Source: Escherichia coli (GTDB taxonomy: Bacteria > Pseudomonadota > Gammaproteobacteria > Enterobacterales > Enterobacteriaceae). Taken from it: 64,000 nucleotides of DNA. How positions within the stretch are numbered: the stretch's first letter is position 1; every line of letters starts with the position of its first letter. The position numbers were made by a program, and so were the translations under genes. Location: assembly GCF_024502345.1 (NCBI RefSeq), contig NZ_JALDNN010000001.1; one strand, given 5' to 3'. The notes below the pieces were generated by a model, which was not told where the DNA came from, searched no databases, and was given only the letters and a program-made list of their open reading frames with translations. This document shows, one piece after another, positions 22,581 to 22,865 of this stretch.

Positions 22581-22865
22581 AAAAAAACTCCCTGTTGAAG
22601 GATGGAAATTGGTTGATATCTAATTGTGCTTATCAGTGCTTTGTGCGACAAATTGGTTAACCTGTCCGACAACTTGTCTATGTTTATCACAACTTGAAAT
22701 AAAGTCAGAAATTAAATATTAAATTTGTGCGCCAGGTTGTACATGTTTATAATCAATAAATGATGAGTAAATATTCACTAGATATATATAATAAATATCG
22801 TAGATATTTATTCAGTAAGAAATATATTTTGCCGAAGTTAATTAACGGGGGGGGTAAAAGAAGTG

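Follow-up and report, generated by a model that had tools for sequence, protein, structure and literature searches.

A length-variable G homopolymer in the spacer between hemW and a TRAP transporter operon of Escherichia coli

The hemW-TRAP locus

The window, which is the whole 64-kb stretch of E. coli DNA that was analysed, contains a TRAP transporter operon separated from hemW by a short intergenic spacer with a run of eight Gs. The region shares 98.9% identity with E. coli strain A34, and its gene order is that of E. coli (mutY-trmB-yggL-yggN-ansB-yggM-[TRAP]-hemW-rdgB-yggU-yggT-yggS). The features of the locus are as follows.

22894-24030, minus strand: hemW, radical SAM haem chaperone (open reading frame list and RefSeq annotation of the homologous E. 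coli locus)
22581-22893, no strand: hemW-TRAP intergenic spacer, 313 bp, 32% G+C
22866-22891, minus strand: hairpin resembling an intrinsic terminator of hemW, 11-bp stem and 4-nt loop, followed by CACTTCTTTT (terminator scan)
22847-22854, plus strand: G8 homopolymer, a length-variable mononucleotide repeat (sequence; G6-G16 alleles in other E. coli)
22641-22672, minus strand: paired boxes TTGTCGGACAG (22672-22662) and TTGTCGCACAA (22651-22641), 21 bp apart (cross-genus alignment)
22608-22621, minus strand: conserved promoter-proximal block AGATATCAACCAAT, about 30-40 bp upstream of the ATG (cross-genus alignment)
21594-22580, minus strand: DctP-family TRAP substrate-binding protein, 328 aa (NCBIfam TIGR00787, 285 bits)
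21046-21558, minus strand: TRAP small permease, DctQ type (open reading frame list, RefSeq annotation, Pfam DctQ on orthologues)
19745-21046, minus strand: TRAP large permease, DctM type (NCBIfam TIGR00786, 471 bits)
18682-19689, plus strand: yggM, convergent with the TRAP group

The tract, GGGGGGGG, occupies exactly 22847-22854 on the plus strand as read from the sequence; the same run is C8 on the minus strand, to which both flanking genes belong. It lies 267 bp upstream of the ATG of the TRAP binding-protein gene at 22580 and 40 bp from the hemW stop codon (22894-22896), which places it at the hemW-side end of a spacer that is AT-rich relative to the window (51% G+C). The earlier note had described an eight-G run here, about 270 bp from the binding-protein start and in AT-rich surroundings, and it was accurate in these respects.

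This is the sole run of at least eight Gs or Cs in the window, the runner-up being a G7 at 7508-7514. An independent-base model predicts about 1.0 G runs of at least eight per 64 kb, and Markov simulation gives 0.69 (order 1) or 0.33 (order 3) G or C runs of that length per window, with a probability of finding at least one of 0.5 or 0.28, respectively. One such run in 64 kb is unsurprising by chance (P about 0.3-0.5). The expected count is low (5e-4) only when the AT-rich spacer is taken alone, and this calculation is post hoc. The reality of the tract as a feature rests on its behaviour across strains, not on the existence of the run.

The tract has the end of the hemW transcription unit as its nearest neighbour. 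The hairpin at 22891-22866 and its tail CACTTCTTTT fit the pattern of an intrinsic (Rho-independent) terminator, the predicted RNA fold has an energy of -21.5 kcal/mol (z = -3.5), and the hairpin core AATGCGCCTGCGGGCGCATT is also found downstream of hemW in Salmonella. The tract begins 11 nt beyond the hairpin stem and 1 nt beyond the U-rich tail, and the C tract is unpaired in the predicted fold of the terminator region. Since it starts beyond the tail and is unpaired, it adjoins the hemW terminator and does not form part of it.

The conserved part of the spacer is found at the other end. When the spacer was aligned with those of Salmonella, Kluyvera and Klebsiella (four genera including E. 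coli), the cross-genus conserved blocks spanned 22591-22735 and comprised GCGCACAAA, TGTGA, TTGTCGGACAG, TTGTCGCACAA and AGATATCAACCAAT. These blocks are 120-260 bp from the tract, toward the TRAP gene, and the 20-bp bin that holds most of the tract is the least conserved of the spacer across the four genera. No G or C run was found in the Kluyvera or Klebsiella hemW-TRAP spacer, and their terminator hairpins differ. The Salmonella spacer shares the hairpin core and has only a C6 in a different context; in Salmonella enterica (locus L050, 2097-2500) the spacer is about 100 bp longer and this C6 is about 50 nt downstream of the hairpin core.

The boxes TTGTCGGACAG and TTGTCGCACAA fit the GntR/FadR-type pattern tnGTnnnACna, and the pair is the likely operator of the TRAP promoter. 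An operator for UxuR or ExuR was also considered. The sequence AAATTGGTT occurs twice on the plus strand in the promoter-proximal part of the spacer (22606-22614 and 22650-22658, 44 bp apart) and four times in the window, where 1.0 is expected, and it is identical to the left half-site of the operator bound by UxuR in E. coli, AAATTGGTATACCAATTT (PMC8092373). Allowing up to three mismatches, the whole palindrome is still unmatched, and the alignment favours TTGTnnnACAA boxes, so this candidate was downgraded.

The solved structures closest to the binding protein are 4ovr, 4n15/4n17, 4mhf/4mij, 4x8r and 4xfe, which we take to be glucuronate- or galacturonate-bound TRAP receptors. No regulator gene adjoins the operon with its paired boxes. 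Together, the closest structures, the paired boxes and the lack of an adjacent regulator gene suggest a sugar-acid transporter whose regulator is encoded elsewhere. Between yggM and the large-permease gene there is a perfect 12-bp inverted repeat, TTTGCCGGATAA...TTATCCGGCAAA followed by TTATTTTTT (19705-19737); it is likely the yggM terminator and possibly serves both convergent genes.

The TRAP operon and its spacer are present in about 1,476 of 5,426 complete E. coli genomes, while hemW is present in nearly all. In strains without the operon, such as S3 and Nissle, repeats that look by eye like the REP type lie between yggM and hemW, and the final 50 nt of hemW are just 72-74% identical to the window. 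The order hemW-TRAP-yggM is found in Salmonella enterica and Kluyvera, and hemW-TRAP-yggN in Klebsiella. Because the gene order is kept in these other genera, the operon seems to be ancestral at this site and to have been lost in most E. coli. The same conserved order rules out an inserted island with the tract as its junction scar. In E. coli SMN152SH1 (locus L002, 1-201) the annotation gives the gene of the TRAP binding protein as a pseudogene, truncated and with its C-terminus missing, which suggests that decay of the operon is ongoing in some lineages.

Tract length across E. coli and between near-identical isolates

For the tract itself, 21 complete E. coli genomes and 24 metagenome contigs were read directly, as was one contig that bears the label of a Collinsella MAG. 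In addition, 59 genomes sampled evenly down a ranking of about 1,476 were matched with a 140-nt query that surrounds the tract. Compared with the window, the matches in this sample differed in length by -4 to +4 nt, and the alleles of the sample were assigned from identity and length signatures calibrated on 19 directly read sequences, not base by base.

The pure alleles read were G6, G7, G8, G9, G10, G11, G12, G13, G14 and G16, along with interrupted forms. The flanks, GAAGTTAATTAAC and (T)AAAAGAAGTG, are identical across G6-G16. The alleles fall into three haplotypes.

Haplotype I (T5GCC left, TAAAAG right): G6 (commonest), G7, G8, G9, G10, G11; G7T, G6A, G7A
Haplotype II, the type of the window (T4GCC left, TAAAAG right): G7, G8
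Haplotype III, or 'loop-A' (A in the hairpin loop, no T after the tract): G7, G9-G14, G16; G8AG6, G7AG6, G5AG7

Among the 59 sampled genomes, haplotypes I and II together account for 14 with G6, 11 with G7T, six with G7, two with G8 and one each with G9, G10 and G11. Haplotype III accounts for 21 genomes spread over G7 to G16, and two genomes are of other types. Queries for exact alleles of haplotype III, which covered 513 genomes, returned about 71 with G12, about 57 with G13 and about 19 with G14. The metagenome contigs (n = 24) comprise 16 with G6, four with G7 and one each with G9, G10, G13 and G8AG6. The tract is present in about 97% of the E. coli that carry the TRAP operon; a divergent lineage (locus L011, 88% identical) has GGGCGATTTAT instead, with the TRAP operon intact.

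The scatter in length grows with the length of the tract, as a qualitative comparison and not a measurement of rate. G6 is nearly uniform within its haplotype (14 of 36 sampled genomes of haplotypes I/II and 16 of the 24 metagenome contigs), whereas haplotype III and the alleles of at least nine Gs have no dominant length. This contrast matches the prediction of length-dependent slippage. Interrupted alleles are common and recur in many genomes (G7T, G6A, G8AG6, G7AG6, G5AG7). The locus combines an uninterrupted run of a length that can slip (about 6-8 bases or more), polymorphism in unit steps, a site under no evident constraint and a scatter that rises with length, as mononucleotide simple-sequence repeats (SSRs) do. 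The earlier note had proposed that length varies by slipped-strand mispairing and had suggested a comparison among strains; the comparison returned alleles from G6 to G16 in 1-nt steps between conserved flanks, which supports this kind of variation, and an invariant length was not what was seen.

The 4-kb contig JAIJJM010000272.1 (locus L036), which is filed as a Collinsella sp. MAG, holds the E. coli hemW-TRAP spacer with G8 and almost certainly consists of E. coli DNA that was mis-binned or came in as contamination. This contig was the single match of a pattern scan of species-representative genome contigs.

Isolates that are nearly identical elsewhere differ at the tract. FY10, HCM-28C-2 and EC12 have G9, G10 and G11, respectively, with only 1-6 SNPs and no further indel over 35 kb, and their G6, C6, T8 and G7 runs are identical. 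Z22-7 and Z22-6, from one hospital project, have G12 and G14 with 2 SNPs over 40 kb, and six further homopolymers are identical between them. Strains named O111, which come mostly from a single sequencing project, comprise eight with G12, 14 with G13, one with G14 and two with G15, with G15 called where the match exceeded the G14 query by one base. From these comparisons the tract appears to be changing faster than point substitution changes its flanks. The single length common to many O111 strains makes its tempo look slower than that of classical phase variation.

EC12 has an integrase and a large AAA-domain protein beside tRNA-Phe (locus L049, 1-4837), and the near-identical FY10 and HCM-28C-2 hold gsp type II secretion genes at that site. 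The G7 at 7508-7514, which served as a control, sits in an unannotated stretch that just 115 of the 5,426 E. coli genomes contain.

Many complete genomes are long-read assemblies, in which long homopolymers are miscounted, and the near-identical isolates differ by 1-2 nt only, so part of the 1-2 nt variation at nine or more Gs may be artefact. It is nevertheless highly unlikely that errors of sequencing or assembly at a long G run account for the polymorphism as a whole, with a true length that is constant within haplotypes. The range from G6 to G16 far exceeds typical miscounts, the alleles track the haplotypes, and the same length is common to many independent genomes. Independent duplicate assemblies of one strain are concordant (d1-58, G13 twice; c1-17, G12 twice), and G7, T8 and A8 runs are constant in the same assemblies. 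The control G7 has an unchanged length in 48 of 60 sampled genomes, the exceptions being mostly from one diverged lineage, and its +1 variant is confined to a lineage that is about 95% identical. Metagenome contigs with SPAdes-style names, which suggest short-read assembly, vary at the tract too, and interrupted alleles such as G7AG6 were found repeatedly in many genomes. Sequencing error cannot explain the allele range or the haplotype structure. Artefact was accordingly rejected for the variation between lineages, although the differences of 1-2 nt within clones may still include some.

Origin of the tract and its possible effect on expression

The tract is probably a hypermutable and essentially neutral mononucleotide repeat, a reading to which we give a probability of roughly three in four. 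Its neutrality is suggested by its position and by its lack of conservation. Slippage is indicated by the pattern of variation, namely the unit-step polymorphism, the conserved flanks, the greater scatter of longer alleles and the differences between near-identical genomes.

During replication, the nascent and template strands would misalign inside the G:C run and leave a 1-nt loop, which mismatch repair would at times miss, so that one G is gained or lost. The rate of slippage would climb steeply with tract length; this steepness would leave G6 near-fixed within lineages and let alleles of at least nine Gs drift quickly even within clones. Occasional base substitutions would interrupt the tract and stabilise its length. 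In E. coli the indel rate depends exponentially on the length of a homopolymer run, and in K-12 the G:C runs of 8 bp stand out as outliers and as hot spots for indels (PMC8510543). Changes in tract length would not be expected to shift TRAP or hemW expression appreciably.

The repeat is best read as young and specific to E. coli. The minus strand of the lineage that lacks the tract reads TTTTATAAATCGCCCGCTAATTAAC, and its start, TTTTATAAAT, resembles the TTTTAAATAT of Salmonella. This likeness suggests that the pure run was probably derived from a CGCCCG-type sequence, still present in one divergent E. coli lineage. The common interrupted alleles fit the usual course of a neutral repeat, which is birth, expansion and interruption. 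As a counterpoint to neutrality, long pure tracts (G12-G16) persist in many lineages despite their expected instability. This persistence could reflect a bias toward expansion, or selection.

An effect on expression would require an element on which the tract could act. The earlier note had placed the run in a promoter region, which is imprecise; the tract sits at the hemW-side limit of the spacer, directly beyond the hemW terminator, and inside no recognisable promoter. Neither a tool scan nor a relaxed scan gave a sigma-70-like -35/-10 pair bracketing the tract, and all promoter candidates are downstream of it on the minus strand, with weak matches from 26 bp on. One weak promoter-like match, CTGAAT-16-TATTAT (22815-22788), would put the tract near -65, a position from which it might influence contacts upstream or the bending of the DNA. 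The tract was also considered as a promoter spacer, but the pair TTTACC...TAACTT, judged by eye, is a poor match and reaches a 17-nt spacing only at about G13. Searches of the region for Rfam families gave only sub-threshold chance matches in AT-rich DNA; a known RNA family was rejected (STnc130, 22.8 bits against a threshold of 55), and a pestivirus UTR and mir-95 were also chance matches.

Tract length could in principle act as a contingency or rheostat switch that alters TRAP transcription through spacing, bending or the gain and loss of a weak promoter, and this would yield heritable and reversible variation in transporter expression within a population. The length does change inside clonal lineages, the tract is upstream of a transporter operon in AT-rich DNA with weak promoter-like hexamers from 26 bp downstream of it, and it is kept in most TRAP-carrying E. 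coli. Precedents elsewhere have their tracts at or upstream of promoters (Bordetella fim, H. pylori sabA, Neisseria porA/opc, S. pyogenes Spy1336/R28). In contingency loci the tract is in a reading frame, or in or beside core promoter or regulator sites, and its length thereby sets expression; here it is intergenic, stands between no -35/-10 pair and is 120-260 bp from the conserved promoter and operator blocks. With only the hemW terminator upstream of the tract, there is no obvious element whose phasing could matter. The same operon does without the tract in other genera and in one E. coli lineage, interrupted and stabilised alleles are common, and a G13 allele common to 14 named O111 strains points to a rate well below that of classical phase variation. 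A switch of this kind is thus unlikely.

The minus-strand poly-C might instead contribute to a site where Rho loads, as a backstop terminator that shields TRAP from hemW read-through and whose efficiency would vary with the count of Cs. Rho favours RNA that is rich in C and unstructured, and the placement of the C8 beyond the hairpin (11 nt) and the U-rich tail (1 nt) would suit this role. We nonetheless regard it as very improbable, since 8-16 Cs are far below a typical Rho utilisation region, A/U-rich RNA surrounds them and the tract is without conservation in other genera. More broadly, it is quite improbable that the tract is an SSR rheostat or insulator, rare in E. coli, in which G6-G16 sets read-through or upstream promoter geometry; its read-through route may involve poly-C Rho loading, or a G-quadruplex or R-loop block in the longest alleles. 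If this were true, clonal populations would gain heritable, reversible variation in how a sugar acid is taken up in the gut.

Significance and comparison with known repeats

As a neutral repeat, the tract ranks among the E. coli G:C homopolymers of greatest length and variability, and about a quarter of strains have it. Its variation inside clonal pathogen groups such as O111 makes it a possible marker for fine-scale typing, and it could act as a natural reporter of slippage or of mismatch-repair status. Assembly and variant calls at the tract are fragile. Were TRAP expression to depend on its length, E. coli would offer a rare instance of repeat-mediated contingency regulation, one that concerns a metabolic transporter rather than a surface antigen, but nothing found in this analysis points there.

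Polymorphic intergenic mononucleotide SSRs of E. coli were reportedly described by Gur-Arie et al. in 2000 (Genome Res) and by Diamant et al. in 2004 (Appl Environ Microbiol). The tract resembles them as an uninterrupted non-coding run with conserved flanks, 1-nt steps between strains and no known phenotype. Unlike typical E. coli SSRs, it is G:C, reaches G16 and varies inside clonal groups (O111). Since the locus is missing from K-12 and from TRAP-less strains, it was probably outside the classical SSR surveys. Runs of G:C are the rare class in Escherichia, where the (A+T)/(G+C) ratio for runs of at least six is 11.6 and G runs of at least six average 6.22 +/- 0.58 (PMC8928963). The literature on E. 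coli homopolymers and SSRs that was searched gave general surveys only, with no paper that mentions this locus.

The 8-bp G:C indel hot spots of K-12 (PMC8510543) are similar in being G:C runs of eight that change by slippage with an exponential dependence on length. Those runs are inside tRNA genes and held constant by selection, whereas the present tract is in a spacer and free to drift.

To homopolymeric phase or rheostat loci the likeness is only that of a variable homopolymer upstream of a gene. Loci with promoter tracts include Neisseria porA, opc and fetA, Bordetella fim, and H. pylori sabA with its T-tract. The intergenic tract of S. pyogenes Spy1336/R28 (PMC7098570) belongs to the same group. 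In the known phase and rheostat loci the tract is between the -35 and -10 elements or adjoins a promoter or activator site, and an effect on expression has been measured. The present tract, in contrast, is more than 120 bp from the control blocks, is in no promoter spacer and is not conserved.
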